Made by a program: the position numbers and the translations under genes. A DNA stretch of 64,000 nucleotides, from positions 50,887 to 114,886 of the forward strand of contig JAPHSS010000020.1 in the NCBI GenBank assembly GCA_026195255.1, read 5' to 3'. Below, piece by piece: positions 8,324 through 42,419 of this stretch (position 1 is the stretch's first letter; each line of letters begins with the position of its first letter). The DNA comes from Gammaproteobacteria bacterium. Lineage in GTDB: Bacteria > Pseudomonadota > Gammaproteobacteria > SZUA-229. A model generated the notes under the pieces. That model saw only the letters and a program-made list of their open reading frames with translations. It made no database searches and was not told where the DNA came from.

Positions 8324-8896
8324 ATGGAAAAAAACATTTACCAGACACCGCAAGCGGACCTATCAACTGAAAGTAAAACCGCTGCCACTTATTACGTTGT
8401 TTCTATAAGAAAATTCATAACTTTATTTATATCAACACTGGGCATTTATGGCATCTACTGGTTTTATAAAAACTGGTCTTTGCACAAAGCCACAACCAAC
8501 TCAAACGCCTGGCCTGTTATGCGAGGAATATTTTCAATATTTTTCACTCATTCTCTTTTTAGAAATATTAACGAGACTCTGCAGCAAAAAAACATTCTAT
8601 ACAAATGGAATCACAGTCTTATCGCTACCACTTATGTAGTTAGTGCTATCTTTTCAAACGTTAGCGACCAGTTATCTGTCAAAGACATTGGCACGCCCAT
8701 AACAGATTTTGCCGGTTTCATATTTCTGGGACTAATGGCACGGGCTTTATACAAAGCTCAATACGCAATTAATGCCGCCTGTGATGACCCACAAGGTCTA
8801 ACAAATAATTACTTTAGCCCCGCCAATATTGCATGGATTATTTTAGGCATTGCCATATGGGGTTTAATTTTTGCTGGTATGGTCTCATATCTTTAA
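8324..8896 (+). CDS. Hypothetical membrane protein, possibly of the DUF4234 type (GIYGIYWF motif)
   Basis: Several TM segments and a GIY..YWF motif. The family assignment is tentative. Confidence 0.45.
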   Translation: MEKNIYQTPQADLSTESKTAATYYVVSIRKFITLFISTLGIYGIYWFYKNWSLHKATTNSNAWPVMRGIFSIFFTHSLFRNINETLQQKNILYKWNHSLIATTYVVSAIFSNVSDQLSVKDIGTPITDFAGFIFLGLMARALYKAQYAINAACDDPQGLTNNYFSPANIAWIILGIAIWGLIFAGMVSYL

Positions 8897-9000
8897 ATTA
8901 AGCCTGTGGATTCGCTCAAGCAATATTTTTTTGCCCGATAATGTACAAACTTTACAAGTTTTATTAATTACTTAGTAAACTAAAAAATATACCCTCTTTT

Positions 9001-20456: not shown

Positions 20457-20652
20457 AAAACGCGAATGAACGCTAATAAACGCAAATGCACGCTAAATTA
20501 ATTTTACGTACATAATAGTGTTGCCATTTCTGGATAATTGCTTCGGAAATCTAACGCCACTTAAAAGAATAAGTCCCCGACGCATTCGGGGAGAACAACA
20601 CGATATATATTGATTTGCGTTTATTTACGGTTATTTGCGTTCATTTGCGTTA
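20457..20652. repeat. Structured gltB-gltD intergenic element: two inverted arrays of four 10-bp direct repeats (consensus yATTTGCGTT) flanking a roughly 115-bp core that contains a GC hairpin
   Basis: Left array, read on the minus strand: ATTTAGCGTG CATTTGCGTT TATTAGCGTT CATTCGCGTT. Right array: GATTTGCGTT TATTTACGGT TATTTGCGTT CATTTGCGTT. Core hairpin GTCCCCGACGCATTCGGGGAG at about 20573-20593. Confidence 0.6.
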
Positions 20653-20685
20653 AATCTTTTATTACAAAAGGTTATAAATAATAGT

Positions 20686-22134
20686 ATGGGTAAGATTACA
20701 GGTTTTAAAGAATTCGAACGCAAGACTGCACCTTATCGTGACGTAACTGAACGTCTGAAAGATTTTGGTGAAATCTATACCGAACATGATAACCAGCACC
20801 TGATTACACAGGGCGCACGTTGCATGGATTGTGGCATTCCTTTCTGTCAGTCAGATGATGGCTGCCCGGTTGATAATCTAATTCCTGAATGGAACGATCT
20901 GGTTTACAACAATCGCTGGCAAGATGCTAACGAACGTTTACATCACACTAATAACTTTCCTGAATTCACTGGCCGTGTCTGTCCCGCGCCCTGTGAAGGC
21001 TCATGTGTATTAGGTATAAACAGTCCTGCCGTAACTATTAAAAACATTGAATGTGCAATTGTAGACCGTGCATTTGATGAAGGATGGATTACCGCTCAAG
21101 CGCCAGCAACTCGTAGCAGTAAAAAAGTAGCCGTTGTAGGCTCTGGCCCTGCAGGTATGGCGGCAGCACAGGAATTAAACCGGGCAGGTCATACGGTTAC
21201 TGTTTATGAACGCGCTGACCGCATTGGCGGCCTGTTAATGTACGGCATACCCAACATGAAACTCGACAAAAGTATTATTGATCGCCGGGTTCAGTTAATG
21301 AAAGACGAAGGCATTGAATTTAAAACAAATGCTGATGTTGGTAACAATATTGATATAAAAGAATTAAAACAAAACACTGATGCCATTTTATTTGCAACGG
21401 GCGCAACCACACCCCGAGATTTACCCGTAGATGGTCGTGATTTAAATGGCGTTCACTTCGCAATGGATTTTCTGACTGCAAACACAAAAAGCCTGTTAGA
21501 TTCAAATCTTCAAGACGATAACTATATTAGCGCTAAAGACAAACATGTTGTTGTTATTGGTGGTGGAGATACCGGTACTGACTGTATCGGCACCTCATTA
21601 CGCCACGGCTGCAAATCTGTTGTTAACTTCGAGTTAATGCCAGTACCGCCTGAGGCTCGTGCTGAAAACAATCCGTGGCCCGCCTGGCCTCACATCTACC
21701 GTGTAGACTATGGCCACGAAGAAGCAAAAAAAGTACAGGGAGAAGACCCTCGCACTTACTGTGTACTGAGCAAAGGTTTTACAGGCACTGACGGAAACGT
21801 TTCTAGCGTTAAAACTATTGAAGTTGAGTGGCATAGCGATGAAGAGACCGGCCAATGGAAAATGCAGGAAGTTGCTGGCTCTGAAAAAGAATGGCCAGCT
21901 GATTTAGTATTACTGGCAATGGGTTTTCTGGGTCCAGAACACTATGTAAGTGATGCGCTAGAAATTGAATATGATGAGCGTTCAAACTACAAAGCTGAAT
22001 ATGGAAAGTACGCCACCAGTATAGAGGGTGTTTATGCAGCAGGTGATTGCCGTCGCGGACAGTCTTTAGTTGTTTGGGGAATCAATGAAGGTCGCCAGGC
22101 AGCTGCCGAAATAGATCAGTTTCTGATCAGCTAA
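20686..22134 (+). CDS. gltD: Glutamate synthase small subunit GltD
   Basis: Fe-S cysteine clusters ([18 protein letters not shown]) and the FAD/NAD(P) dinucleotide fold [14 protein letters not shown]. Start chosen at the ATG at 20686, after an RBS. Confidence 0.9.
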
Positions 22135-22140: not shown

Positions 22141-22186
22141 AAAATAACTGTAGGGTGATCCCGGAATACGCCCTACAGTTATTTTC
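22141..22186. terminator. Bidirectional terminator hairpin between the convergent gltD and substrate-binding-protein genes
   Basis: AACTGTAGGG, a 15-nt loop, then CCCTACAGTT, with A/T runs on both sides. Confidence 0.6.
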
Positions 22187-22210
22187 GATTACTTTAAAGC
22201 TTTAGTTTAC

Positions 22211-23167
22211 CTAAAAGCTTTTAATTTCTAGCTCACTCTCTGTCGCAGGAACGAACGCATAGGATGCATATATTTTTTGCGCATCAGGCGTTGCCAGGTA
22301 TTTTAAAAAAACTTTTGCATTCTCTTTATTTCTAGCTTTATTCATTATACCAATAGCGTATGCAACCTTATCTTGCTTGTTGTAAGGCGCCTTAATTGCC
22401 ACACCATCAATTTTACGTCCCTCAGCTTTTGCATGCGCAACTTCTGAGGTCCAGACTATACCCACATCTGCCTGGTTGTTTTCTATACGATATGGCGTTT
22501 CACGGTGATGACGCTCAGTAAACCAGGTTTTCTGTGGCACCGCCCAGCATTTTTTGCATTTCTTATCTGCCGTTACCTTTTCATAAATACCCAGGTCTTT
22601 TAACATTTCACTACCATAAAATTTAAAAATACCTTCTGTTAAAGGATTTGGGTGTGACTGCACAAGATCATCTCTACCTAAATCTTCGGCGCCCTTTATG
22701 TTTTTGGGGTTACCCTCCGCCACCATTAACTCAAGTTTATTATGTGTATAAATTATATAGTTATTAAGCAAGCCTTTTTTATTTAACTTTTTAAGATGAT
22801 TTATATTTACACTTGCATATAAGTCAGGTGTCATAGATGTTTTTGCTCCATTTATTTTACCCTGCTTTAATAATTGCTTTTTTAAAATCTGTCCCGGCGG
22901 AATTGTTTCAACATAAACTGTTTTAATATTCTGGTTCTTTGATTGGAAGTCCTTTATCAACTCTTCCATAACCATGAACTGATTACCTGCCAGATACATA
23001 ACCAGATCTGAGTCGTATGAATCTTTTATATTGCCATAACCTATATCACCATTAACATTAAAGGTTCTATAGTCATGACCATGACCAGCGTCTTTTGCAC
23101 TAACCATTGACGAAAGCATTAACAACAATAATGTAGTAAACATATTTAATACGGGTTTTTTAATCAT
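22211..23167 (-). CDS. Periplasmic oxyanion-binding protein of the ModA/Sbp (molybdate, tungstate, sulfate/thiosulfate) fold. Orphan: no permease or ATPase gene nearby.
   Basis: Signal peptide. The C-terminal region ADVGIVWTSEV...AKVFLKYLATPDAQKIYASYAFVP resembles the ModA/Sbp/CysP C-lobe. I cannot resolve the subfamily from sequence alone. Confidence 0.55.
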   Translation of the reverse strand: MIKKPVLNMFTTLLLLMLSSMVSAKDAGHGHDYRTFNVNGDIGYGNIKDSYDSDLVMYLAGNQFMVMEELIKDFQSKNQNIKTVYVETIPPGQILKKQLLKQGKINGAKTSMTPDLYASVNINHLKKLNKKGLLNNYIIYTHNKLELMVAEGNPKNIKGAEDLGRDDLVQSHPNPLTEGIFKFYGSEMLKDLGIYEKVTADKKCKKCWAVPQKTWFTERHHRETPYRIENNQADVGIVWTSEVAHAKAEGRKIDGVAIKAPYNKQDKVAYAIGIMNKARNKENAKVFLKYLATPDAQKIYASYAFVPATESELEIKSF

Positions 23168-23327
23168 ATTTAATCTCCAGCTATATTATTTTTAATTTTT
23201 ATTTTCCATATATAGACGTTACAGAATAATTTTTTATTCCATATATTTTTATGCAACTTCATGTTGATATATTTCACGTATGCATATATTTTATATTACG
23301 TGTTTAACCTTAAAAAATGAGAATCTT

Positions 23328-23798
23328 ATGAAAAAACCATTGTCATCTGTTATTACACTTCTAAGTTTATTAACTATTTATACATTTAGTCACGCCGGGC
23401 CTGCAGGCTTGATAAATAAAGCCAGCAATTTTAATACTAATGAGACTATCAACCGACTAGAAGCCGTATTAAAAAAGAAAGGCATTACTGTTGTCACACG
23501 GTGGAACCATAGCGAGCGCGCTAAAGACATAGGCATTACACTCAGACCAACCGAGCTTATTATATTTGGAAATCCTGAATTAGGTAGTCAGTTTTTTACA
23601 TCTCAACAAACTTCAGGTATAGACTTACCTATGAAAGCACTAGCATGGGAAGATGAAACTGGTCAGGTATGGCTAAGTTACAATGATCCTTCATTTATAA
23701 CTTCCCGTCACAACATAAAAGATAGAGAGAATGTTTCAAAAAAAATGAAAAATGCTTTAAACAAACTCACCAATATTGCAACAGGAAGTAAAAATTAA
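23328..23798 (+). CDS. Secreted DUF302-family protein
   Basis: Signal peptide, then a DUF302-like core (…IFGNPELGSQFF…IDLPMKALAWEDETGQVWLSYNDP). It overlaps the stop of the convergent anti-sigma gene by 4 bp. Confidence 0.55.
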   Translation: MKKPLSSVITLLSLLTIYTFSHAGPAGLINKASNFNTNETINRLEAVLKKKGITVVTRWNHSERAKDIGITLRPTELIIFGNPELGSQFFTSQQTSGIDLPMKALAWEDETGQVWLSYNDPSFITSRHNIKDRENVSKKMKNALNKLTNIATGSKN

Positions 23799-24496
23799 AT
23801 TTTAATATATGACCAGCCTTCATGTACACGTTTAACAACCTGCTCAATTGCAGTTACACCATGATGTACTGAGTTGATCATTTTAGGCTCAATGCCTTCT
23901 TTACGTAGACGCTCTACCGCATTACTACAAGCTATGAATTTTATATTTGGATATTCATTGCTCAAGGCTTTTACTCGTTGCGAATAGGGAGATGCGTTTT
24001 CACGAAACAAATCAAGCCCACCTGCATTAGCAATAATTTCTAATTGTATACCCTGATCAATATTTTGATAATTAGCTAATAACATTTCAGCCTGATCAAG
24101 GGTTTGTTTAAATTTTTTATTATCATTTACGCTAATGTGTAAAATATACTTGCCGGGATTTTCAGCAAGCACCTGCATTGCCGGATTAACTGAACTTTCA
24201 TCTGACGTGCCCATGCGATTGCTCAGCATATCACTAGTAAACCAGCCGCCTGTAAATGTAATAATTAAAAGAGCCACTGAAGCCAGCATACGATAGCTAC
24301 TATTTGAAGCCTGTTGTTTAACAGGTGGTTTCACATTCTGGTATGCATGCTGTAACTGTGCTTTTAACGCGTATAAATCATCAAGAGTTTGCTGCAGACT
24401 TGTATCAGTCAATAAGGCTTTTTCAAACTCTGTTTTTTCACCGCCTTGCAGCTCACCATCTGCATAGGCATGTATAATTTCTGTAGAGAATTCCAT
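23795..24496 (-). CDS. Membrane anti-sigma factor whose periplasmic C-terminal domain has a DsrE/YchN-like (sulfur-relay fold) sequence
   Basis: N-terminal anti-sigma domain (IHAYADGEL..EKAL…LDDL) lacking a zinc motif, one TM helix (MLASVALLIITFTGGWF), and a C-terminal roughly 130 aa that is paralogous to the CDS at 25309-25745 and keeps a conserved Cys (ACSN). It is 3 bp downstream of the ECF sigma gene. Confidence 0.65.
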   Translation of the reverse strand: MEFSTEIIHAYADGELQGGEKTEFEKALLTDTSLQQTLDDLYALKAQLQHAYQNVKPPVKQQASNSSYRMLASVALLIITFTGGWFTSDMLSNRMGTSDESSVNPAMQVLAENPGKYILHISVNDNKKFKQTLDQAEMLLANYQNIDQGIQLEIIANAGGLDLFRENASPYSQRVKALSNEYPNIKFIACSNAVERLRKEGIEPKMINSVHHGVTAIEQVVKRVHEGWSYIKI

Positions 24497-24498
24497 TA

Positions 24499-25086
24499 TT
24501 ATTTTACCACTCTCAAAATGTTGTCTGCATTGCTTTCCTGTGCTTTACATGCCACATGTGTTTTATTTTGTTGTTCCAAACGCTTTTTTTTAATGCTCTT
24601 ACCTAAGGCACTTCTTGCCCTGTTTAAGCGACTCATCACTGTACCAATAGGCACCTGTAATACACTTGCCACTTCACTATAACTAAGACCCTCCAGATCA
24701 ACCAGACTAACAACCTGACGCTGGGCATTAGGCAGGCCGGTCATGGCGCTACGCACCATCAGGTCAACCTGATTTACCAGCATTTCATGCTCTGGTGTAT
24801 TATTGTCTGCAATTACAATTCGTTCAATATCTTCACTGGGCCTGCTTTTTCTTAAATAACCCAACCAGACGTTATTTAAAATCGTATAAACCCAGCCATC
24901 AAAAGCCGCCTCGTCTTTCAATTGCTCAATTTTTTGAAGCGCCAACATCTGGGTTTCCTGCACCAGGTCATCAGCCAGCATGGCATCATGCGACCAGGCA
25001 TATGCCATTCGATAAAGCTTTGGACGACTTGACTCTATGCGTCTAACAAGCCCCACCTTACGACAGGCTAGTTTAAATATATTCAC
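24499..25086 (-). CDS. ECF (group 4) sigma-70 family RNA polymerase sigma factor
   Basis: Region 2 (LVQETQMLALQKIEQLKDEAAFDGWVYTILNNVWLGYLRK) and region 4 (SYSEVASVLQVPIGTVMSRLNRAR). Confidence 0.85.
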   Translation of the reverse strand: MNIFKLACRKVGLVRRIESSRPKLYRMAYAWSHDAMLADDLVQETQMLALQKIEQLKDEAAFDGWVYTILNNVWLGYLRKSRPSEDIERIVIADNNTPEHEMLVNQVDLMVRSAMTGLPNAQRQVVSLVDLEGLSYSEVASVLQVPIGTVMSRLNRARSALGKSIKKKRLEQQNKTHVACKAQESNADNILRVVK

Positions 25087-25106
25087 TACACACTCTTAAT
25101 TATCCC

Positions 25107-25240
25107 TTAAACAAATTGGATTACTAAATTAAAGATACATTTGTCCTGGTTTTTATTCCATTTAATTTAAATTAAATCATTAATTAGAAAACAACTAAAT
25201 TAGCACTATCTAATTCATTGATTTAATTAAACAAATTGGA
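25107..25240. promoter_or_regulatory. Divergent promoter region holding two direct copies of TTAAACAAATTGGA exactly 120 bp apart
   Basis: The repeat copies are at 25107-25120 and 25227-25240, in the AT-rich spacer between the ECF sigma gene (minus strand) and the DsrE-like gene (plus strand). Each TTGGA(A/T)TA could serve as an ECF-type -35 element (GGAAT). Confidence 0.35.
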
Positions 25241-25308
25241 ATATTTTTTCCATACGTTTCATCTATTACCTGAATCACAATTAAACCTGAGGAGGTTAAT
25301 AAAAAAAA

Positions 25309-25745
25309 TGAAATCAATAATTCTAATTTTCACGCTACTGCTGTGCATGGCATCAATGACTGCTAATGCAGATAGCACTAGCAAGCCATTCGCTGAAAAG
25401 CGTGTAGTTCTTCAGATAAGCGACCCAAATCCATTTAAACAAACACTGGTTTTAAATGTTGCCGGCAATCTGATCAAGCACTATGGTCAGGATAAGGTTG
25501 ATATTGAAATAGTTGCATTTGGCCCTGGCCTTAGACTATTAATGGCAGGTAATAGTAATCAGTCACGTATTAGCGGCTTGAGCGATTCGGGCATCCAGTT
25601 TTCTGCATGTGAAAATACCATTGCAGCTTTTACTAAAAAATTAGGCCATAAACCCGAACTGGTTTCACAGGCAACACCTGTTAGTGCAGGTATTGTACGA
25701 ATTTTAGATCTAACAGCTCAGGGTTACACTCTGATTAAGCCTTAA
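25309..25745 (+). CDS. Secreted DsrE/YchN-like fold protein, paralogous to the anti-sigma C-domain
   Basis: GAGGAGG RBS and a signal peptide (MKSIILIFTLLLCMASMTANA). VLQISDPNPFKQTL / IEIVAFGPGLRLL / FSACENT align with the anti-sigma motifs ILHISVNDNKKFKQTL / LEIIANAGGLDLF / FIACSNA. Confidence 0.5.
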
Positions 25746-25767
25746 TATGCATCATGAGGAAATATTA

Positions 25768-27078
25768 ATGAATATAAAAAAAATAGCATTATTGACTGGT
25801 TTGTCATTAATTAGCACAGGCACATATGCTGCCAACTGGCTGTCGTTACAGGGAACAGAGAAACCGGGCTCATCAGCACGAGCAAAGGTATGGGGATTTA
25901 TACAACCTGAATACCAGAAAACTGATGGTACAAAATTACCTGCAGGTACCCCTTTTGGCGGACAGAACATGTCTCCAAATATGATCAAACCAGATAACAC
26001 ATCTAATGAATCGTTTAATATTCGTCGTGCACGTGTTGGTGTACGAGGTACAGGCTTCCCTCTTGATGACAATGTTAACTACTTCTTCCTGGCAGAATTT
26101 GGCCACAACGGAATAACCAAGCTGGGTAAAACAGGTGTTTCACTTACTGACGCCAGCATAACTTTAAACCATATCTCTGGCGCACGTATTCGAGTTGGGC
26201 AATTTAAAACACCGACATCTGAAGAAGGTTTACAGGCCATTCACGTATTTAACTATGTGAACTTTACCAGTATGACTGACCAGATGATGCTTGAACGCTT
26301 TACTGATGGTGATGGCATTGCCGCCCCAACTACAAATGCTAATGGACCCAATGGGTCAGTGGGTGCTTTTCGTGATCAGGGTATCCAGGTATTTGATACA
26401 TTCAAGGTAAACGACTGGGAACACAGTTATGCGGTAATGTATGGCAATGGAAATGGCATTAACCGCTCTGATAGTGACAATAACAAAGACACATACCTAT
26501 ACTGGTCGTCTGAACTTGTTTATGGCGGTAAAGGCGCACGTCGTGAAGGCCTTAAAATGTTCGCATGGAACCAGGATGGTACTCGCACCTTAACGACCTC
26601 AGGTGCCGGTGAATATGACCGTACCCGTAATGGTTTGGGCATCACTTTTCTTAAAGGCAAGTATCGCGCAGCAGCCGAATACATGACTGCAGATGGTATG
26701 ATCTTTAATGGTTCTGACGGCGGAGCAGTTCCTGGCTCTAGAAACAATGCTGATACAACCACCGCCACCCTAAATGTGCTCACTGACGATAAATCTGATG
26801 GTTATTACCTGGATTTCGGCTACAAGGTATTACCAAAACTTGAGCTGGATATTCGTTATGACGTATTAAACAGAGCAACTGAAACTGTAAACGGTGAACG
26901 TGTTTTCGATACAGTCACTCTGGGTGCACAATACTTCTTTAACAAGAAGACCCGCGTCACTTTCAACTATGAAATACGCAATCAGGATGCCCCCGGGTTT
27001 ACTGATACTCAGGGTCCAAACCTGATTGCCGATAATCTTGACGACAGATTGTCATTACAGTTATTAGCAATATTCTGA
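25768..27078 (+). CDS. Outer-membrane beta-barrel porin, possibly an OprO/OprP-like anion-selective porin
   Basis: GAGGA RBS, a signal peptide (…TGTYA-ANW), amphipathic beta-strand periodicity over about 440 aa, and a C-terminal aromatic residue (…LAIF). The subfamily is a guess. Confidence 0.5.
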   Translation: MNIKKIALLTGLSLISTGTYAANWLSLQGTEKPGSSARAKVWGFIQPEYQKTDGTKLPAGTPFGGQNMSPNMIKPDNTSNESFNIRRARVGVRGTGFPLDDNVNYFFLAEFGHNGITKLGKTGVSLTDASITLNHISGARIRVGQFKTPTSEEGLQAIHVFNYVNFTSMTDQMMLERFTDGDGIAAPTTNANGPNGSVGAFRDQGIQVFDTFKVNDWEHSYAVMYGNGNGINRSDSDNNKDTYLYWSSELVYGGKGARREGLKMFAWNQDGTRTLTTSGAGEYDRTRNGLGITFLKGKYRAAAEYMTADGMIFNGSDGGAVPGSRNNADTTTATLNVLTDDKSDGYYLDFGYKVLPKLELDIRYDVLNRATETVNGERVFDTVTLGAQYFFNKKTRVTFNYEIRNQDAPGFTDTQGPNLIADNLDDRLSLQLLAIF

Positions 27079-27103
27079 TAGTTATAAATAAACTGGAAAC
27101 GTT

Positions 27104-27131
27104 AACCTCCCTTGCTCTGGGGAGGTTTTAT
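27104..27131 (+). terminator. Rho-independent terminator after the porin gene
   Basis: CCTCCC-TTGCTCTG-GGGAGG hairpin followed by a TTTTA run. Confidence 0.6.
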
Positions 27132-27301
27132 ATTAAAAAAGGAACATTTTAATCTAATTAAGTAACGACTAATACTGACTTTGAATTGCCCATATTGATT
27201 GATTTACTGTATTTATGTGCTATCTTTTATATTCGGAGCTTAATATAAGCGGCGTTGTTGTCTTGCTATTATTAACCTTCACAGTATATCAGGAGTATCC
27301 T

Positions 27302-28198
27302 TTGCGTCATTTCTTTTTACAATTTTCTAGCTGCATCTTCATATTTTATTCAAGCTCACTTTACTCTCAGGAAAATATTCTTAACTGGGTAGGTTGCGGC
27401 ATAAGTAAAAAATCTTATATGACACGCCTTGCCAAAGCATACACCGACTCTAAAAAAATAGATGTAAACTTACAAGGTGGCGGAGCAACACGTGGCATAC
27501 GTGATGTTTCAAAATTAACGGCAGACTTTGGAGGGGCTTGCAGATATTATTTACCAGGAAACCTTCAGGAAGAAAAAGTCGGTTTTGAACCCGTTGCCTG
27601 GGATGCATTAGCCGTTATTACACACCCTGACAACCCCGTCAATAACTTATCTCTTAAGCAGGTTAGGAAAATATATACCGGTGAAATCACAAACTGGAAA
27701 TCCGTTGGCGGTAATGATGCCCCAATAAAATTATTAACCCGAAAAGGTAAAATTTCTGGCGTAGGTTACTCAATACGTTCTTTAATATTTTCTGATACAA
27801 ATATGGAATTCCCACATTCAAAAAAGTTTAAATCGAGTGGCCCAATTGAAAAAGCCGTTGAGTCAGATATTAATGCTCTTGCCATTACAGGTGTGAGTAG
27901 CGCGAGATTAAGACAGGTTAAAATATTGAGCCTGAACAATAAACAACCAAATTATGACACTATCAAAAGTGGTCATTATGTTTTATATAGACCTCTTTAT
28001 ATAACCTTCAATCCACTAGGCCCCCAGGCAAAACAGGTTAAGGATTTTATTCGTTTTGCACACAGCAAAACAGGTAGAAGCATTATGATTAAAAATGGTG
28101 TAGTACCCTACATTGATGCCCTCAGGCTGGTGATGATCCAGTCTAGACAAACTTTAGCATCCCAGTCGAATAGTAAATCTAACTTAACTTACGATTAA
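27302..28198 (+). CDS. PstS-family (phosphate-type) periplasmic oxyanion-binding protein. Orphan: no pstCAB nearby.
   Basis: AKAYTDSKKIDVNLQGGGATRGIRDV...ADFGGACR resembles the PstS N-lobe (…GGGSG.G…SR). The likely start is the TTG at 27302, after an AGGAG; the ORF track gives 27215. Confidence 0.5.
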   Translation: MRHFFLQFSSCIFIFYSSSLYSQENILNWVGCGISKKSYMTRLAKAYTDSKKIDVNLQGGGATRGIRDVSKLTADFGGACRYYLPGNLQEEKVGFEPVAWDALAVITHPDNPVNNLSLKQVRKIYTGEITNWKSVGGNDAPIKLLTRKGKISGVGYSIRSLIFSDTNMEFPHSKKFKSSGPIEKAVESDINALAITGVSSARLRQVKILSLNNKQPNYDTIKSGHYVLYRPLYITFNPLGPQAKQVKDFIRFAHSKTGRSIMIKNGVVPYIDALRLVMIQSRQTLASQSNSKSNLTYD

Positions 28199-28332
28199 CA
28201 GCTCAGCCAGTAATAAATATTATTCGTTAGAAAGCCATAATACAGACACATAATTAAAACATATCAGCTTATTAACCTCCCCTGGTTAACAAAAACTCTG
28301 TGTTATGTTCGCCTCTGTGGCAAAATAGCCAC

Positions 28333-30078
28333 ATGGCTGGCCGTATACCTCAACAATTCATTGACGACCTTATCAATCGTGCTGACATAGTCGACGTTGT
28401 AGACTCACGTGTCGCCTTAAAAAAGCGCGGCAAAGAACATATTGCCTGCTGCCCTTTCCATAATGAAAAAAGCCCTTCTTTTACTGTTAGTCAAAGTAAG
28501 CAGTTTTATCATTGTTTTGGCTGTGGAGCCCATGGCACTGCACTTGGCTTCATAATGGAGTACGAGCGTCTTGACTTTGTAGATGCCATTGAAGTACTTG
28601 CCGCTGAGTACCATATCGACGTACCTCGTGAACAGGGCAGTTTTAACCCCCAGCAAGATGACAAAAAACCACTCTATGAAATTTTAGAAAAAGCCTCTCT
28701 TAATTTCGCAAATGAATTAAAAAAAACACCTCGTGCGGTAGAATATTTAAAACAGCGCGGCTTAAGTGGTGAAATTGCAAAAGACTTTCAAATGGGTTAC
28801 GCACCTGATAGCTGGGATTTCACACTAGGGCAACCAGGCCTGAGTAAAGAAGATAAAACTGCCTGCCTAAAGTCAGGTTTGAGCATCGAAAAAAGCCCTC
28901 AGAAACATTACGACCGTTTTCGTGACCGTATAATGTTTCCTATACGAGACCGACGCGGTCGTACAATTGGCTTTGGTGGCCGCATACTGGATAAGGGAGA
29001 GCCCAAATATTTAAACTCCCCTGAAACCCCGGTATTTCATAAAGGCGAAGAGTTATATGGCTTATATGAAGCAAGGCAATCAGTAAAAGACTTAAAACGG
29101 ATTGTCATTGTTGAAGGTTATATGGACGTTGTTGCACTTGCACAACATGGAATCAAATATGCGGTAGCCACCCTGGGAACGGCTACTTCAGAAACACAGA
29201 TATCCAAACTGTCTCGCATCGTTCCTGAATTAATTTTTTGTTATGATGGTGATGCGGCAGGAAAAAAAGCAGCCTGGCGAGCATTAGAAAATTCACTCTC
29301 TGTATTACGAGATGGTATACAGGCAAGATTTTTATTCTTACCAGATGGAGAAGACCCTGACACCCTGGTCAGGCAAGAAGGGCAACAGGCTTTCGAACAA
29401 CGTTTAAGTAATGCGACACCTCTCTCAGATTTTATGTTGCAACATTTATCAGAAGATCTGGATTTATCTTCTGCCGATGGTTGTGGTCGACTTTCAGAAA
29501 AGGCCAAACCCTTAATTAGTAAAATTGAAGATGGTGTATTTAAAGACCTGTTAGTTAATCAACTTTCAAAAATGATTGGTTTATCCAGTTCCAGCCTGCA
29601 ACAACACATCCCCGAGTCGAAAAACAAAACACAAACTCCGCACTACAATAACAGAGCAGTGTCTGCAAAACACCAGATCAGCATGACCCCTACCCGTCTT
29701 GCCATTGCGCTATTATTACAACACCCGTCACTTGCAAAAGAGTGTGAAATTCCCGAACAACTTTTATCCTCTGATATGCCGGGTTTAAAACTGCTAATAC
29801 AAATACACAAAACAATATTACAAACAGATGCAATCTCACCTTCGGTTTTAGTTGAACGCTGGCGAGACACTATTGACGCACCTGTTATTAATAAACTTAT
29901 GCAACTAGATATACCTGAAGCGAAGAAAGATACGCAACTCGCATCTTTAAAAGATGCTTTTAAGAATCTGCTGCAAAAACACAAAGACGAACGCCTACAG
30001 GAATTACTAAACAAAAGCCGCACATCTGAATTAAGCTCAGATGAAAAAAGTGAATTAAGCCAGCTTTATCAGAGCTAA
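28333..30078 (+). CDS. dnaG: DNA primase DnaG
   Basis: MAGRIPQQFIDDLINRADIVDVV N-terminus, a CHC2 zinc finger (CCPFHNEKSPSF…CFGCGAHG), the TOPRIM domain, and a C-terminal DnaB-interaction domain. Confidence 0.9.
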   Translation: MAGRIPQQFIDDLINRADIVDVVDSRVALKKRGKEHIACCPFHNEKSPSFTVSQSKQFYHCFGCGAHGTALGFIMEYERLDFVDAIEVLAAEYHIDVPREQGSFNPQQDDKKPLYEILEKASLNFANELKKTPRAVEYLKQRGLSGEIAKDFQMGYAPDSWDFTLGQPGLSKEDKTACLKSGLSIEKSPQKHYDRFRDRIMFPIRDRRGRTIGFGGRILDKGEPKYLNSPETPVFHKGEELYGLYEARQSVKDLKRIVIVEGYMDVVALAQHGIKYAVATLGTATSETQISKLSRIVPELIFCYDGDAAGKKAAWRALENSLSVLRDGIQARFLFLPDGEDPDTLVRQEGQQAFEQRLSNATPLSDFMLQHLSEDLDLSSADGCGRLSEKAKPLISKIEDGVFKDLLVNQLSKMIGLSSSSLQQHIPESKNKTQTPHYNNRAVSAKHQISMTPTRLAIALLLQHPSLAKECEIPEQLLSSDMPGLKLLIQIHKTILQTDAISPSVLVERWRDTIDAPVINKLMQLDIPEAKKDTQLASLKDAFKNLLQKHKDERLQELLNKSRTSELSSDEKSELSQLYQS

Positions 30079-31398: not shown

Positions 31399-31466
31399 CC
31401 GCACTGAGGAGCGCTGCAGCAGATCTCTCTGTCAGGCTTAGTGCATCTTTTTTAAACGGCGCTCAT
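31399..31466 (+). ncRNA. Probable S-adenosylhomocysteine (SAH) riboswitch in the metK leader
   Basis: GCACUGAGGAGCGCUGCAGC … GUCAGGCUUAGUGC … AACGGCGCUCA. A P1 helix (GCACU/AGUGC), the GAGGAGCGCUGC and CAGGCU cores, and a 3' ACGGCGCUC element that could pair with GAGCGC in a pseudoknot all match the SAH-element consensus as I recall it. A TATAAT -10 lies at 31386-31391. Confidence 0.55.
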
Positions 31467-31588
31467 TTATTAGTTTCTAGTTTGGCTAAAAATGAGCACG
31501 GATCTAAAATCGGCATAATCTGCCACTACAAGATTCACTCATATGGCTTTATTAGCGCTGCTAGTATTTGTATCGAGGAATTGTAAAC

Positions 31589-32749
31589 ATGTCAAAAAGT
31601 CACCTATTTACATCTGAATCCGTATCAGAAGGACATCCTGATAAGGTTGCTGATCAGATATCGGACGCTATCCTGGATGGTATTTTTCAACAGGATCCGA
31701 AAGCACGTGTAGCTTGTGAAACACTTATTAACACCGGTATGGTTGTTTTATCAGGCGAGATAACCACTGAAGCATGGGTCGATATGCAGCAAATTGTGCG
31801 CGATACTGTGCGAAATATTGGTTATACCAGCTCCGAAATGGGCTTTGATGCTGATTCCTGTGCAGTTATCACCTCTATCGACAAACAGTCTCCTGATATT
31901 GCTATGGGCGTTAATGAGGGAGAAGACCACGAGCAAGGTGCTGGTGATCAGGGTCTTATGTTTGGTTATGCCTGTAATGAAACAGACGTACTTATGCCTG
32001 CACCGATTACTTATGCGCATAAACTCGTTAGACGTCAGGCAGAAGTGCGTAAAAATGGCACATTAAACTGGTTACGCCCGGATGCTAAAAGTCAGGTTAC
32101 TTTCCGTTATGAAGATGGCGTTCCTGCAGGCATTGAGGCGGTTGTTTTATCAACACAACATTCTCCTGATATCAGCCTGAGCGCACTGCGTGAAGCCGTT
32201 ATGGATGAAATTATTAAGCCAGTATTGCCGGCTGAGCTAATCAGTAAAGACACTAAATATCATATCAACCCAACGGGTAACTTCGTTATTGGTGGCCCTG
32301 TTGGTGACTGTGGTTTAACTGGCCGTAAAATCATTGTTGATACTTACGGCGGTATGGCGCGTCACGGTGGTGGTGCCTTCTCTGGTAAAGACCCCTCAAA
32401 AGTCGATCGCTCTGCTGCTTATGCTGGTCGTTATGTTGCAAAGAATATTGTTGCCGCTGGTCTGGCTGACAAATGTGAAATTCAGGTTTCGTACGCAATC
32501 GGTGTTGCCGAGCCTACCTCTATTTCTATTGAAACATTCGGCACAGGCAAAATTGATGATAGCCGCATTGAAGAACTGGTACGCGAACATTTCAACCTCA
32601 AACCAAAAGGCCTTATTCAAATGCTTGATCTATTGCGCCCAATCTACGCAAATACAGCAGCTTATGGTCATTTTGGCAGAACTGAAGATAACTTTACCTG
32701 GGAACGTACAGATAAAGCAGCAGCACTAAAAGACGCAGCTGGTATTTAA
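31589..32749 (+). CDS. metK: S-adenosylmethionine synthetase MetK
   Basis: [30 protein letters not shown], plus the GAGDQG and GGGAFSGKD motifs. Start chosen at the ATG at 31589. Confidence 0.95.
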
Positions 32750-32839: not shown

Positions 32840-34246
32840 ATGAGTGAATTTACAGATTATAAAGTAGCAGATATGTCTCTGGCTGAATGGGGCCGTAAAG
32901 AGATTTCAATTGCAGAAATTGAAATGCCAGGCCTGATGGCGTTACGTGAAGAATATGCAGGCAAAAAACCATTAGATGGTTGCCGCATTATGGGCAGCAT
33001 TCACATGACAATACAGACGGCTGTGCTAATCGAAACCTTAGTTGATCTGGGTGCCAGTGTACGCTGGGTTTCTTGCAATATTTTCTCTACACAGGATCAT
33101 GCGGCGGCGGCTATCGCTGCGCAGGACATTCCTGTTTTTGCCTGGAAAGGTGAAACTATCGAGGAATACTGGTGGTGTACTGAACAGGCACTATTATGGC
33201 CAAACGGTGAATTACCAAACATGATTCTTGATGATGGTGGTGATGCTACTCTTTTAGTTCACAAAGGTGTTGAGTTTGAAAAAGCAGGCGCTATTCCAGC
33301 AACTAAAGATGATGACAATGAAGAATACAAAGCTATTCTTGATGTACTACGCCGTACCATTGAGCCTGGCTCAAGCACATGGCAAGATATTGCAGCTAGC
33401 GTTAAAGGTGTAACTGAAGAAACAACCACAGGTGTTCACCGTTTATATGAAATGGAGAAAAAAGGTGAGTTACTTTTCCCTGCTATGAACGTGAATGATT
33501 CAGCAACAAAATCTAAATTCGATAATTTATACGGTTGCCGTGAATCACTAATCGACAGTATTAAACGTGCAACTGATGTAATGATTGCCGGTAAGATTTG
33601 TGTTGTTCTAGGATATGGCGATGTTGGCAAGGGTTGCGCTCAGGCTTTCAAAGGCATGGGAGCAACTGTGTGGGTTACAGAGATTGATCCTATATGTGCT
33701 TTACAGGCGGCAATGGAAGGTCACCGTGTTGTAGACATGAATGAAATTGTAGGCCAGGGCGATATCTTTGTTACGACTACTGGTAATGTAAATGTTATAG
33801 ACCATCACCATATGGAAGCAATGAAAAATGAAGCTATCGTATGTAATATTGGTCACTTCGATTCTGAAATTAATATTGCATCACTTGAAAAATACGAGTG
33901 GGAAGAAATCAAACCACAGGTTGATCACGTAATATTCCCGGACGGCAAAAAGATCATCATTCTTGCGAAGGGCCGTTTAGTTAATTTAGGTTGCGCAACT
34001 GGTCACCCAAGCTTTGTTATGTCAGCCTCATTTACTAATCAGGTAATGGCTCAAATTGAGTTCTTTACCAATGCACAGGCATACGAAAATAAGGTTTATA
34101 TTTTGCCTAAGAAACTTGATGAGAAGGTAGCACGTCTGCATTTAACTAAAATCGGTGCACATCTAACTCAACTTAGTGAAACTCAGGCCGAGTACATTAA
34201 TGTGCCTATCGATGGCCCATATAAAGCTGACCATTACCGCTACTAG
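32840..34246 (+). CDS. ahcY: Adenosylhomocysteinase AhcY
   Basis: A 468-aa protein with the NAD-binding motif [10 protein letters not shown] and the [18 protein letters not shown]-terminus. Confidence 0.95.
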
Positions 34247-34350: not shown

Positions 34351-35202
34351 ATGAAAACACAACAAAAACTAGACAAGCAATTTAGCTGTGAATTTTTTCC
34401 TCCTAAAACAGATATAGGAATGGAAAATCTTTTCAATACGGCTGAAACACTAAAAAAAGAAATTAATCCTGAATTTTTTTCTGTTACGTTTGGTGCCGGT
34501 GGCTCAACGCGTGAAACAACATTTAATGCGGTCACTAAAATACAAAAACAAACGGGTTGCAATGTAGCCCCTCATCTATCATGTATAGGTTCTAGCAAGC
34601 AACAGTTACAAAGCATTCTCGATGAATACAGGGCACAGGGAATAAAGCGGATTGTTGCCTTGCGCGGTGACATGCCTTCAGGCACCGTTTCACAAAGCGA
34701 CTTCAACCATGCCAATGAATTAGTTGCTTTTATTCGAGAAAATTTTGGTGATCAATTTCACCTTGAAGTAGCAGCATATCCTGAAGTTCATCCTCAAGCT
34801 GAAAACGCCATTCAAGATATGAAAAACTTCAAAACCAAAGTACTTGCTGGTGCAAATTCAGCTATAACTCAATATTTTTACAATATAGACAGTTATTTTT
34901 ACTTTATCGATAATTGTGAAAAATCGGGGCTCGACCTGCCCATTGTACCTGGCATAATGCCCATCACTAACTACAGCAACCTTGCGCGTTTTTCTGATAT
35001 GTGTGGTGCGGAAATACCTCGCTGGTTAAGACGAAAGCTTGAAGCTTACGCTGATGACACAGATTCAATTAAAGACTTTGGCGCTGATTTTGTTAGCTCA
35101 ATGAGCCAGAAACTATTAGACATGGGCGCGCCCGGCTTACACTTTTATTCCATGAATCAGAGCGAAGCAACACTACGCATATGGAATAACCTCAAATCTT
35201 AG
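34351..35202 (+). CDS. metF: 5,10-methylenetetrahydrofolate reductase MetF
   Basis: FEFFPPKT…FVSVTYGA-like start (SCEFFPPKTD…FFSVTFGAGGS), then APHLSCIG and IVALRGD motifs. Confidence 0.85.
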   Translation: MKTQQKLDKQFSCEFFPPKTDIGMENLFNTAETLKKEINPEFFSVTFGAGGSTRETTFNAVTKIQKQTGCNVAPHLSCIGSSKQQLQSILDEYRAQGIKRIVALRGDMPSGTVSQSDFNHANELVAFIRENFGDQFHLEVAAYPEVHPQAENAIQDMKNFKTKVLAGANSAITQYFYNIDSYFYFIDNCEKSGLDLPIVPGIMPITNYSNLARFSDMCGAEIPRWLRRKLEAYADDTDSIKDFGADFVSSMSQKLLDMGAPGLHFYSMNQSEATLRIWNNLKS

Positions 35203-35994: not shown

Positions 35995-36447
35995 TTACAT
36001 CATTACCTGTTTTACAATTGATTCAAGTTTTTCAATATTAACAATACTATAAGTACCATCAGCCATCATCACTTTGTCTTCAATGGCAGGGTGTGTTATT
36101 TCTTCTTTATTTGAAATAATATCTTCTTCTTTAACATTAACTACTGTCGGTGCATCCTGCATTAAAATTGACATGAACGGTAAGTTACTATCTTCACCAA
36201 TAGAAAACAAAATAGCCGCTTTAACTGAACCAGTAGCAAGACTCGGCATGCGAACATTACCCATTGCTTCAAATGAAATAAGTGGAACTGAATGTCCACG
36301 CCAATCTAAATAACCTAACATCCAGCCAGGTTTATTTGCCACATTAATAATATTTTTAATAGGCACTATTTCAGCTACCGCTGCATTAGGCATTAACAGC
36401 TCATCACCATTAATCTTTAATATTACACATTTAATTTCTTCAGACAT
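35995..36447 (-). CDS. chpC: CheW-like coupling protein ChpC
   Basis: A 150-aa CheW domain immediately downstream of chpA, with a 1-bp overlap. Confidence 0.7.
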   Translation of the reverse strand: MSEEIKCVILKINGDELLMPNAAVAEIVPIKNIINVANKPGWMLGYLDWRGHSVPLISFEAMGNVRMPSLATGSVKAAILFSIGEDSNLPFMSILMQDAPTVVNVKEEDIISNKEEITHPAIEDKVMMADGTYSIVNIEKLESIVKQVMM

Positions 36448-39400
36448 CAGTCAAGTAACTCATGTATATTTTCAAGTAATTCATCTTCCTGGAATGGTTT
36501 ACCCATATATTTGTTTACACCAATTTCCATTGCTTTGTCTTTATGCTTGGCGCCACTACGAGATGTAATCATTATTATAGGCAAATCAACCAGTCGAGGA
36601 TCATTCCTTACGTGCGTAGCTACTTCGTAGCCGTCCATTCTCGGCATCTCAATATCTAACAACATCACATCAGGTTTAATCTCCTGCAACTGTGATACAG
36701 CATCCACACCATCTTTCGCGGTGACAACTTTCATATCATGCCTGGTTAACATACGCTCTGTAACTTTACGAATGGTAATAGAATCATCAACTACCATAAC
36801 GATAGTTTCTCGTTTTTCTTCTGCTACAGGTAATACTTCACCCGCTGGGCTTTCAGTTTCATCTTCAGATTCTGTAATGTGGAATAAAGAATCTCCGAGA
36901 ACCAGGGAGTTCATTTCGAGAATAATGACTACACGGCCATCACCCAATATTGTAGCTCCAGAAATACCACGTACTGTGCTTATTTGTGAGCCAACTGGTT
37001 TAACAACCACTTCACGTCGACCAATTAACTCATCGACATGCAAGGCAACACTCTGCTCGCCAGTTCTGGCTAACAATACAGGGAACAACTGACCTGAACG
37101 TGAATAGTCAGGCTGCTCGCCTGTCAACATCTGTCCTAAATGTTTTAACTCATACGAACTGCCGGCAAACTCATACGTACTCTCGCCACTGTTATAGAAT
37201 TGTTGCAATTCCGGACCAGACAGTCGAACAACACCTTCAATACTATTCAATGGCACTGCGTAAATTTCATCACCCACATTAACAAGTAGTGCATGATTAA
37301 TAGCAAGTGTAAGCGGTAAACGAATTTTGAATGTTGTGCCCTTACCTTGAACAGTATCTATTTCTAAAACACCGCCAAGTTGTTTTATCTCGCTGTCAAC
37401 AACATCCATTCCAACACCACGGCCGGAAATTTGAGTAACTTTTTCAGCTGTACTAAAACCAGCTTCCATAATATATTGCAATACGTCATGATCGCTGATC
37501 TTACTATTGGCATCTAACAGGCCTTTTTCAGTTGCTTTCTTTCGTATTGCATTAACATCTATGCCGCGCCCGTCATCTTTAACAATAATGACAACATCAG
37601 CGCCTTCACGATCAACGACTATTTTAAGCGTACCTGAATCTGGCTTACCTGCAGCCTGACGTTCAGCCACCTTTTCTATGCCATGCGATACCGCATTACG
37701 TAACATATGTTCAAGAGGTGCAACGATTCGGTCTAATACCGTTCGATCAACCTCAGACGTTTCACCAACAATTTCAAGCTCTACTTCTTTATCTAAATCT
37801 CGTGCAGTTTGGCGAACAATTCTTCGTAACCTTGACGCAAGCCCACCAAAGTGAACCATACGCGTACGCATCAAACCTTCCTGTAACTCAGTACTTACTC
37901 GAGATTCCTGTAACAGTAATGTTTCAGAGTCACGAACCTCTTCAGATAAAAGCTCTTTAATACTCTCTATATCACTTACAGTTTCCTGCAAGCTTCGTGA
38001 AATCTGTTGCATAGTTGAGAATCGGTCCATTTCTAATGGATCGAAATCTTCATCATACTGATCTGATTCCTTTTCATAACGTGAAAGAATCTGTGCTTCA
38101 GTCTCAATAGAAAGCTGGCGCAGCTGATCGCGCAAACGAATAACTGTTTGATTCATTTCTGAAAGGTTGAATGAAAAGTTTGATATCTGCTGGCCCATAC
38201 GTGCATGATATACACTAACTTCACCAGCATGATTTACCAGCTCATTTAATAGGTCAGATCGTACACGCACCTGTTCAGTGGCAATACTCTCTTTTTGCTG
38301 AGGGACTATTTTTTCGTGAGATTCATCTGATTTATCAAGAACCAGATCTGATGCGTCATTATTTTTAACGGATAGAGCTTCTACTGGCTCTTCTGAAGTA
38401 AGCTCATCTGTAGCCGGTTCATCTGAAGTTAACTCATCTGTAGTTGTCTCTAATTCTGCCTCTAGCTCGGCATCATCAATTACACTCACAGAAACATTAT
38501 CGACAGATTCAGCTGTTTCTTCGAGCAGTGATTCTGTACTTAATTCAACTTCATAAGTTGCATTTTCATCGAATACGAGCTCTTCTGTGTTAGCGGATTC
38601 GACATTATCTGCATCGTCGGGAATTTCAAAACCAAAGTCATCATCTGACTCTATGACAAGCTCTTCTGATAAAACATCTTCTTCTGACAGCTCAATTGAA
38701 AATGCTTCTGATTCATCAGTGTCTTCTTTTGTTATGCTTTTATCAGCCCCCCGGGGGGGCTCAGGCTCATCAACCTCTTCATTTAATGAAGCTGCCTGGC
38801 CATTATTTAAAGTTTTTTTTCCCTCTCTAATCGCATCAATATGCGAAATCAATGCAACAGCAGATGATAATGGTTTTCTATCTTTTACCTTAGATAACAT
38901 ATCAGACAACTTATCCAGAGCGTCATGGAATGCATTTGATATATCTTTACTGAATGGTAATTTTTTATCGTTTACAGCTATAACTAAAGATTCAAGAGCA
39001 TGTGTCAAGTCTCCTACAGGGCTTAGATCCGCCATCCTTGCACCACCCTTCAGTGTATGCAAATGACGCTGTAAATCTAAAACACTTTCTTCATCTTCAT
39101 TATTCGAATTCCAGCGCTGCAAACTATTTTCACAGTTATCTAGTAACTCTTCCGCCTCTTCCAGGAATATCTCTACTAACTCATCATCAACATCAGAGTA
39201 ACTAACTAACGACTCTTCACTATTTGTTTCATTACTAATTTCATTTACTGCGTCTATATCTTCAGTTTTTATTGATTGACTACGTTTCTCATCAACTAAC
39301 TCTTTGATGCGATTTAACAATGATGTATCGGATGACAGCTGATGATTTTTCTGTTCCAGCGCTTCCAGCATAGCAGAAACTTTATCAGTTACATCCCTAA

Positions 39401-42410: not shown

Positions 42411-42419
42411 ACTCTAGCC

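Follow-up and report, generated by a model that had tools for sequence, protein, structure and literature searches.

A four-gene cassette of marine Gammaproteobacteria with an ECF26-like sigma factor and a DsrE-like anti-sigma factor: a candidate periplasmic sulfur sensor

In Sinorhizobium meliloti, sulfite-generating compounds activate the extracytoplasmic function (ECF) sigma factors RpoE1 and RpoE4, and SorT, the periplasmic sulfite dehydrogenase, is under the control of both (PMC3511301). The promoters that have been mapped for the rpoE1 operon (GGGAATAAATCCATAGCCCTCCGTGTCT), rpoE4 (TGGAATAAGCGAGGCAGCTCGCTCGTCT) and sorT (GGGAATTTTCCGGGGCGTCAGTCGTCT) share the form GGAAT(A/T)-N16-(T/C)GTCT (PMC6180224). 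In the DsrE family, cytoplasmic DsrE3A carries thiosulfate on a cysteine (PMC4175335), DsrE-family and DUF302 genes are found in the sox clusters of Sulfitobacter (PMC11034169), and a periplasmic DsrE-like gene is found in the sox operon of Methylovirgula strain HY1 (PMC9371685). Here we describe a 64,000-nucleotide (nt) stretch of DNA from a Gammaproteobacteria bacterium (GenBank assembly GCA_026195255.1, contig JAPHSS010000020.1, positions 50,887 to 114,886; hereafter the window, in whose numbering coordinates are given unless another locus is named) that contains a cassette of four genes encoding an ECF26-like sigma factor, an anti-sigma factor with a DsrE-like domain, a secreted paralogue of that domain and a porin. 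With a probability of roughly 55%, we propose that, in this cassette, an ECF26-like pair whose sensor domain was exchanged would report periplasmic sulfur species, with a predicted sulfur carrier and the porin as its output.

The cassette lies between gltD (20635-22134) and dnaG (28300-30078), where calls of open reading frames (ORFs) and Pfam and NCBIfam profile scans of the window identified seven ORFs. All seven had been listed in an earlier, sequence-only reading of this DNA, in which they were taken as a single module. Related loci were gathered by exact-sequence look-ups of homologues, a one-genome-per-species scan and BLAST/HMMER comparison of ORFs. In 22 of the 23 distinct loci with enough flanking sequence, the genes for the sigma factor, the anti-sigma factor with its DsrE-like domain, a secreted DsrE-like protein of ~145 residues and the porin were found together, so the cassette genes do co-occur elsewhere. 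Typically, the loci are arranged as porin <- DsrE-like | sigma -> anti-sigma; three Thiogranum loci instead have the DsrE-like/porin operon downstream of, and convergent with, the sigma and anti-sigma genes. The set was found in at least six genome contexts, including flanks of gltBD/dnaG (the window, L001 and L006, with the gltD side only in L007, which ends at the anti-sigma gene), xseB-ispA-dxs/radA (L002-L005 and L009-L011, with the dxs side only in L012), glycogen genes (L026 and L028), polysaccharide genes (L027) and glnE/groES-dsbD (L038). Treating all seven genes as one unit was rejected because only four of them recur across loci: the DUF302 gene is variable, and both binding-protein genes are restricted to the gltD/dnaG clade while the four-gene core is not. 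The conserved unit is therefore four genes and not seven. Named hosts of the cassette, which we take to be sulfur oxidisers, include Thiogranum, Thiolapillus, Thiotrichaceae, the endosymbiont of a siboglinid (Galathealinum) and vent and sediment Gammaproteobacteria, and several of the proteins come from hydrothermal-vent metagenomes.

Beside the cassette of L002, a conserved ORF of 97 residues (8789-9082 of that locus, - strand) lies just downstream of and convergent with the anti-sigma gene and has no Pfam match. It is also found in L004, L008, L009, L010 and L011, mostly in the xseB/radA context and with up to 111 residues; the L010 copy looks hydrophobic, and the ORF may be accessory.

The sigma factor gene (24499-25086, - strand) encodes a protein with only the domains Sigma70_r2 (E 2e-12) and Sigma70_r4_2 (E 7e-15), and neither region 3 nor region 1 was found by Pfam. 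Its score of 76.5 bits against TIGR02937 (cutoff 42.9), together with the anti-sigma gene downstream, places it among the ECF (group IV) sigma factors. As such it is cytoplasmic, and the earlier statement that every product of the block is an envelope protein does not hold. Its best annotated plasmid match is rpoE6 of S. meliloti pSymA (39.5% identity, E 5e-21), whose identity as rpoE6 follows from a comparison of its neighbours, genes for an S8 peptidase and a VOC protein, with the table of PMC6180224. The N-terminus of the anti-sigma factor is in turn 36% identical over 58 residues to S. meliloti EcfR6 (E 1e-7), the similarity being confined to residues 2-59. The cassette promoter consensus, derived from 31 sites, also agrees with the ECF26 form GGAATA(A)-N16-CGTCT. 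The extracytoplasmic region usual for ECF26 anti-sigma factors, which is of the COG5662 type (PMC3511301), was not found; the C-terminal 118 residues are DsrE-like instead. From these sequence comparisons, the pair can best be called ECF26-like, its extracytoplasmic domain having been replaced.

The anti-sigma gene (23795-24496, - strand) starts 2 nt past the sigma stop codon. Its product consists of an N-terminal anti-sigma domain (~1-55), which forms three helices in the AlphaFold model, one hydrophobic segment (~70-88), a variable linker and the DsrE-like domain (116-233). The N-terminus matches zf-HC2 (E 0.0034) and NF052375 (E 9e-5), each below its own cutoff, and contains no cysteine, so that the zinc ligands of the H-x3-C-x2-C motif are missing and the protein is not a zinc-binding anti-sigma factor (ZAS). 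Because the N-terminal domain has to reach a sigma factor in the cytoplasm and one hydrophobic segment lies between the two domains, the DsrE-like domain is predicted to be periplasmic. Searched against the Protein Data Bank (PDB), a profile of 30 anti-sigma homologues matched 1l1s (MTH1491) with E 1.2e-12 over residues 117-233. The C-terminal domain of the AlphaFold model (pLDDT 70-86) was superimposed on 1l1s with a Foldseek E of 5e-8, a TM-score of 0.86 and a root mean square deviation of 2.0 Å, and it also matched 2pd2 (Foldseek E 1.3e-6). Residues C190, R165, G160, G201, G227, W228 and Y230 do not vary among 24 distinct anti-sigma sequences, whose identity goes down to 29%. Cys190 sits in the motif F-I-A-C-[SA]-N and is the sole cysteine in 13 of these 24 sequences.

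An exhaustive profile search among representatives of 50%-identity clusters found 407 proteins of the anti-sigma family at E<=1e-30; a word-indexed search gave 85 clusters, which is too low. The best 150 of the 407 are nearly all full-length, with 227-255 residues. Because of this number of representatives and the near-completeness of the best 150, the sigma-linked fusion of anti-sigma and DsrE-like domains is, by sequence profile, a large and old family. We found no description of such a fusion in the literature, and the main text of the ECF reclassification paper contains no mention of DsrE, sulfur or this architecture, which agrees with the earlier remark that the locus was not recognisable as a described system.

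The gene for the secreted DsrE-like protein of 145 residues (25308-25745, + strand) is divergent from the sigma gene. Its start had been placed at 25309, which is out of frame and is corrected here to 25308. The protein has an N-terminal hydrophobic, signal-like segment, matches PDB 1l1s with E 3e-7 and is paralogous to the anti-sigma domain (29% identity, E 3e-9). The cysteine of the F-x-A-C-x-N motif is common to the anti-sigma domain, the secreted paralogue, the DsrE-like proteins of sox clusters and more distant DsrE-like proteins. For both cassette proteins, the sequence matches and the structural model together indicate that the assignment to the MTH1491/COG1416 branch of DsrE-like proteins is right. 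The family of the secreted protein comprises 2962 clusters, the source names of which are "Blr3520 protein homolog" or "DsrE family protein".

The porin gene (25747-27078, + strand) begins 1 nt past the stop codon of the DsrE-like gene, although its true start may be 25768, and the encoded protein ends in Phe. It scores 36.1 bits against the Pfam model Porin_O_P (cutoff 20.9) over profile positions 20-343 of 370. In the related loci the porin gene is always directly downstream of the DsrE-like gene, and the porin of the window is 52-76% identical to the porins of 17 of these loci and ~42% identical to a split copy in L017. An intrinsic terminator (27104-27127, + strand), with a nine-pair stem followed by a T run (-15.1 kcal/mol, z -2.9), closes the DsrE-like/porin operon. 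On a small mobilisable plasmid of Acidithiobacillus caldus, pLAtc2 (L023, 2981-6363), porin and DsrE family genes are found within 3 kb. We dropped this context as a parallel because the similarity of the porins reaches only E 0.001 over 105 residues.

In nearly all loci, a shared motif, TGGAATAAA-N15-CATCT/CGTCT, is found upstream of the sigma operon and of the DsrE-like/porin operon alike, and its -10 element takes the form CATCT, TATCT or CGTCT, 16 nt past GGAATA. A weight matrix was built from 31 sites, with the consensus TGGAATAAA-N15-CATCT. The best score in the window, 28.3, is that of the putative autoregulatory promoter of the sigma/anti-sigma operon (25133-25159, - strand; GGAATA 25159-25154, TATCT 25137-25133), followed by that of the DsrE-like/porin operon (25238-25264, + strand; GGAATA 25238-25243, CATCT 25260-25264; 28.1). 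The third, 26.4, is a sigma-type promoter (23207-23244, - strand; -35 GGAATA 23240-23235, -10 CGTCT 23218-23214) upstream of the gene for an orphan solute-binding protein (SBP). The next match scores 22.9 (54388-54425, + strand); it is antisense inside a protease gene and was treated as noise rather than as a promoter, and all others score <=13. Exact GGAATA-N18-TCT occurs three times in the 64-kb window, against 0.44 expected, with all three occurrences in the block and no shuffle giving three.

The same matrix was applied to related loci. Scores >=17 in 306 kb of these were restricted to the cassette promoters, a site upstream of the SBP orthologue of L007 and two sites in L022. Three loci outside the training set had both sites, with scores of 15.5-27.7, and none of five loci without the cassette had a promoter site at a score >=15. 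The DsrE-like/porin promoter is kept where the operon stands apart from the sigma gene, namely in the Thiogranum loci L015, L020 and L021. Upstream of the SBP orthologues in L001, L006 and L007, TGGAATAAAA is conserved with a spacer of 15-16 nt, and the -35 element was not found upstream of orthologues in genomes where the SBP gene stands alone. As read from these sites, the regulon would consist of the sigma operon, the DsrE-like/porin operon and, in this clade only, the gene for the orphan binding protein.

Two further observations concern sites of this kind. A 35-nt imperfect inverted repeat (25154-25243; 74% complementary) spans the divergent promoter region of the window; it mostly equals two back-to-back TGGAATA -35 elements and could be an operator for another regulator. 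In L022, an ORF of 534 residues without a Pfam match (5278-6882, - strand) is divergent and lies behind a promoter-like site (7001-7038, - strand) scoring 19.2.

The genomic contexts of the secreted protein's homologues link this family to sulfur oxidation. Annotated records place such homologues within soxZ-soxB-DsrE-DsrE-DUF302 on pOB3b1 of Methylosinus trichosporium and within soxXYZA...DsrE-DUF302-DsrE in Sulfurovum mangrovi. The sequence-only reading had proposed a dedicated envelope module for sensing and handling a sulfur species or an oxyanion, built on an ECF pair with a DsrE-like domain and a secreted paralogue. Its general architecture is borne out by our analyses. As to the signal, the sulfur side is better supported than phosph(on)ate, molybdate or tungstate, because of the invariant cysteine, the links to sox clusters and the link to ECF26.

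We propose the following mechanism. The single-pass anti-sigma factor would hold the ECF26-like sigma factor at the inner membrane until a reactive inorganic sulfur species, most likely sulfane sulfur/polysulfide, thiosulfate or tetrathionate, or sulfite, modifies or binds Cys190. This signal at the periplasmic domain would lead to release of the sigma factor, by proteolysis or by a conformational change. The freed sigma factor would then transcribe its own operon, the DsrE-like/porin operon and, in this clade, the gene for the orphan ModA-fold protein. As a result, the outer membrane would become more permeable to an anionic sulfur substrate, and the secreted paralogue would serve as a periplasmic cysteine-based carrier or buffer, which could also feed back on the sensor. 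In this scheme, the gene set and its conservation, the fold and the paralogy, the invariant cysteine, the shared promoter and the affinity to ECF26 are observed; topology, signal, cysteine chemistry, mode of release and porin selectivity are inferred. A stronger version, which we hold only tentatively, is that the cassette would represent the first periplasmic sulfur-sensing anti-sigma factor, in which the DsrE-like domain acts as a covalent receptor (a persulfide or thiosulfonate at Cys190), the paralogue as a relay or buffer and the porin as a dedicated substrate channel.

Several observations weigh against the proposed role in sulfur sensing. Outside the block, the 64-kb window contains only housekeeping genes, and no sox, dsr or sqr gene was found in it. 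One homologue, from Azospirillum, has a context of an Rrf2 regulator and a site-2 protease that is not related to sulfur, and the context in Halorussus is uninformative. In L022, the sigma/anti-sigma pair is found without the DsrE-like and porin genes. The porin matched no solved structure at E<=0.1, OprP and OprO included, and its anion selectivity is assumed from membership of the Porin_O_P family only. The literature on COG1416 and MTH1491 yielded nothing functional, MTH1491 itself being a protein of no known function. Finally, neither the anti-sigma factor nor the secreted protein matched Pfam DsrE (PF02635) at E<=0.01. The earlier designation of both as DsrE/YchN-like thus stands by their matches to PDB sequences and folds and by their paralogy, but the Pfam and NCBIfam models call neither protein; a close homologue, P0175, has a precomputed PF02635 match.

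The Azospirillum homologue just mentioned is a distant relative of the secreted DsrE-like protein and is encoded on the A. brasilense plasmid ABSP7_p2 (L031, 2560-5402), where an Rrf2 regulator, a hypothetical gene and a site-2 protease gene precede it; there, the DsrE-like domain may take part in another kind of signalling.

A single invariant cysteine in the sensor domain would also suit a sensor of thiol or redox stress in the envelope, with Cys190 oxidised by peroxide, hypochlorite or disulfide stress and a protective regulon. Redox-sensing cysteines are known in ECF systems, for example that of SigK, and one ECF26 subgroup adjoins catalase and cytochrome b561 (PMC7826278). The regulon found here, however, consists of a porin and a paralogue resembling sulfur carriers, with no enzymes of redox repair. 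In addition, DUF302 and the family of the secreted paralogue are located in sox clusters, and the hosts are presumably sulfur oxidisers. We consider a role in redox stress quite unlikely.

The paralogy of the sensor domain and the secreted protein raises another possibility, namely that the ligand of the anti-sigma factor is the secreted paralogue itself and that mixed oligomers report the amount or the loading state of the carrier as feedback. The two proteins are strictly co-inherited and share conserved surface motifs, and DsrEFH and TusBCD are oligomers. Such an arrangement is compatible with sensing of sulfur species as a layer of feedback but does not replace it, and it leaves the invariant cysteine in both proteins unexplained unless sulfur transfer is involved. 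As the sole explanation of the cassette, it is unlikely. We retain the sensing of periplasmic sulfur species as the preferred interpretation, to which feedback by the paralogue could be added.

The block was also considered as a recently acquired genomic island, as had been suggested from its conspicuously AT-rich spacers and the bidirectional terminator hairpins at its edges. It is flanked by housekeeping loci on both sides, the cassette is found at different sites in different lineages, and two of its spacers, with GC contents of 0.20 and 0.23, are the lowest and the third lowest among 33 intergenic regions. These values are only ~1.5-1.8 standard deviations (sd) below the intergenic mean (0.34, sd 0.07), and AT-rich spacers are expected of promoter regions. 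The block as a whole is only modestly AT-rich (GC 0.379, against 0.411 for the window). Among its genes, those for the SBP and the DUF302 protein only are ~2 sd below the mean gene GC, whereas the sigma, DsrE-like and porin genes are within 1 sd of 42 background genes in GC and in GC at third codon positions (GC3). Of the edge hairpins, the left one (22141-22185), between the convergent gltD and SBP genes, forms a strong bidirectional terminator: its 15-bp inverted repeat is perfect, has A/T runs on either side and folds with -23.2 kcal/mol on one strand and -22.2 kcal/mol on the other (z -5.8 and -5.0, respectively). The right one, with -5.4 kcal/mol, is weak, and the genuine terminator of that side is the one that follows the porin gene.

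No tRNA gene was found in the 64-kb window and no integrase or transposase domain by Pfam scans of the seven genes. The gltD...dnaG arrangement is kept in L001 and L006, the anti-sigma factors of which are 66% and 96% identical to that of the window, respectively, and its gltD-side half is retained in L007 (65-66% identical). Because the same arrangement is found in these relatives, any insertion is old. In view of the native composition of the core, the arrangement shared with relatives and the lack of a tRNA gene and of mobility domains within the scope given, we rejected a recent island, which is highly improbable. The cassette has moved during evolution, but the window copy is no recent import, and recent horizontal transfer is not supported for it.

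The remaining genes of the block encode a DUF302 protein and two binding proteins, and the earlier assignments of these to DUF302, SBP_bac_11 and PBP_like_2, like that of the porin to Porin_O_P, all hold in Pfam. The predicted secreted DUF302 protein (23328-23798, with an alternative start at 23280, + strand; E 4e-17) appears to be an accessory. Its gene is also found in L006 and L007 and beside the anti-sigma gene of the Thiogranum contig L019, and it is absent from L001. Close kinship between the DUF302 proteins of the window and of Methylosinus was discarded because they share only domain-level similarity. The DUF302 and anti-sigma genes of the window are convergent, and their last four bases, including the stop codons, overlap at 23795-23798 with no terminator between them; the same is found in L006.

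The orphan SBP_bac_11 protein (22211-23167, - strand; Pfam E 2.5e-35) has a ModA/WtpA-like fold. It falls below all NCBIfam equivalog cutoffs for ModA, Sbp, CysP and WtpA (for example, 53.3 against 62.5 for TIGR01256 modA, 38 against 308 for CysP and 38 against 155 for Sbp). Its best Foldseek matches are ModA/WtpA proteins with 15-20% identity, so that the fold class alone is shared, and the model has low confidence exactly in the candidate ligand loops. The sulfate-binding motif NPKTSG of 5um2 reads NPLTEG in this protein, Glu replacing the anion-binding Ser of the Sbp type. Its 24 aligned homologues, which are 69-87% identical and come from marine Gammaproteobacteria including Cycloclasticus, have the invariant residues H172, E178, C204, C207, H220, H221 and E223 as well as GHGHD-like N-terminal residues. 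Judged from sequence, these Cys, His and Glu residues resemble a site for a metal or for redox chemistry rather than a pocket for an oxyanion, and an oxyanion would be only a candidate ligand of this protein. The family has 2383 matches, and the best 120 clusters of these are all at >=70% identity. By these searches, it is a very widespread orphan family that is tied to the cassette sigma factor only in the clade of the window. The PstS-family protein (27215-28198, + strand; PBP_like_2 E 2e-24) scores 128.5 bits against TIGR02136 (cutoff 206.6), matches PDB 1twy with E 3e-24 and is encoded between the porin gene and dnaG with no pstCAB. Its gene was found only in the window, L006 and L001, lies behind the terminator at 27104-27127 without a sigma-type promoter and shows no link to the cassette. 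As had been stated before, neither binding protein has a permease or ATPase gene of an ATP-binding cassette (ABC) transporter nearby: there is none in the window, nor was any found beside homologues of the ModA-like protein in the other places examined, which included L001, L029, L030 and a Cycloclasticus genome.

These two proteins, together with the porin, bear on the possibility that the block is a module for an oxyanion such as phosphate, phosphite, molybdate, tungstate or sulfate, in which the DsrE-like domains are generic scaffolds. The membership of the porin in Porin_O_P, the PstS-family neighbour with its match to 1twy and the sigma-type promoter of the gene for the ModA-fold neighbour are consistent with such a module. 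The four-gene core, however, extends beyond the single clade to which both binding proteins are restricted, and the position of the PstS-like gene behind the terminator, the subthreshold scores of the ModA-like protein and its Glu at the anion-binding Ser of Sbp all speak against it. Matches to an E. coli-type Pho box occur at chance (7, against 5.2 expected), with none in the promoters of the block, and the invariant cysteine and the sox-cluster and ECF26 links point to sulfur. We regard an oxyanion module as very unlikely and favour sulfur species as the signal.

Elsewhere in the window, an S-adenosylhomocysteine (SAH) riboswitch (RF01057, 58 bits; 31400-31471, + strand) lies upstream of metK (31568-32749), ahcY (32840-34246) and metF (34351-35202), and the EamA-metK neighbourhood after dnaG is also found in L001. 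A ChpA-like hybrid kinase of 1987 residues (36447-44546, - strand), with three matched Hpt stretches and HATPase_c, CheW and receiver domains, adjoins a methyl-accepting chemotaxis protein of 708 residues with a PilJ N-terminal domain; together they probably belong to a Pil-Chp chemosensory system of type IV pili. The gene at 53065-55860 (- strand) encodes a trypsin-like protease of 931 residues with several PDZ domains.

To our knowledge, most regulators of sulfur oxidation that have been described are repressors in the cytoplasm, and extracytoplasmic sulfur sensing by chemolithotrophs is poorly understood. The cassette offers a testable candidate for such a sensor, whose sensor domain has one cysteine, whose promoter is defined and whose output comprises two genes. 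It further provides an initial approach to the roles of three uncharacterised groups, the "Blr3520-like" secreted DsrE proteins, the DUF302 proteins of sox clusters and a conserved porin. Given its carriers, which include a siboglinid endosymbiont and Thiogranum metagenome-assembled genomes, and the vent-metagenome origin of several of the proteins, the cassette may bear on symbiosis and on sulfur cycling in sediments. If the proposal is true, marine thiotrophs and animal symbionts would use the cassette as the switch that detects a sulfur substrate outside the cytoplasm and opens the outer membrane to it. For the biology of ECF sigma factors, it would be a case in which a known, ECF26-like group has been retargeted by a swap of the sensor domain of the anti-sigma factor, and its sigma factor, anti-sigma factor and promoter could together be used as an orthogonal switch that responds to sulfur.

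Among known systems, the ECF26 pairs RpoE1/EcfR1, RpoE4/EcfR4 and RpoE6/EcfR6 of S. meliloti resemble the cassette pair in that an autoregulated ECF sigma factor is co-transcribed with a membrane anti-sigma factor. The promoter architecture, GGAATA(A)-N16-(C/T)GTCT, is the same, the sigma factor is ~40% identical to RpoE6, and the anti-sigma N-termini are 36% identical. The pairs differ in the sensor, which is a DsrE-like domain in the window and a COG5662-type region in the ECF26 anti-sigma factors, and in the regulon, which comprises SorT with a cytochrome and an azurin, or a serine protease, in S. meliloti, and the DsrE-like paralogue and the porin in the window. They also differ in the hosts, which for the cassette are, as we assume, marine gammaproteobacterial sulfur oxidisers. 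Like RpoE/RseA, the cassette pair is predicted to be autoregulated, and its anti-sigma factor to cross the membrane once, to bind the sigma factor with a cytoplasmic domain and to sense with a periplasmic one. In contrast to RpoE/RseA, it has no RseB partner, its sensor has the fold of small-molecule carriers with a conserved cysteine, and its predicted regulon is tiny and specific.

Both DsrE-like proteins share their fold with DsrEFH, TusBCD, DsrE3A and the MTH1491/ST0148 branch (1l1s and 2pd2), and their conserved cysteine, which comes after a beta strand, is a candidate counterpart of the active-site Cys78 of DsrE. The characterised relay proteins of the DsrE family are, however, cytoplasmic and work in oligomeric relays, whereas one of the cassette copies is fused to an anti-sigma factor and the other is predicted to be secreted; moreover, the cassette proteins do not reach PF02635, and their closest structure, MTH1491, has no known function. 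The periplasmic DsrE-like genes of sox clusters (SEED "Blr3520 protein homolog", MHY1_00068 of Methylovirgula HY1 and orf2 of Sulfitobacter) belong to the family of the secreted protein and are often beside DUF302. They differ in lying inside sox operons, with no sigma/anti-sigma pair or adjacent porin reported, and none of them has been characterised biochemically. The cassette porin, finally, belongs by a score above the curated threshold to the same Pfam family, Porin_O_P, as OprP and OprO of Pseudomonas aeruginosa, from which it differs in having no match to solved structures at E<=0.1. OprP is controlled by PhoB, whereas the cassette porin is under predicted control of the ECF sigma factor.

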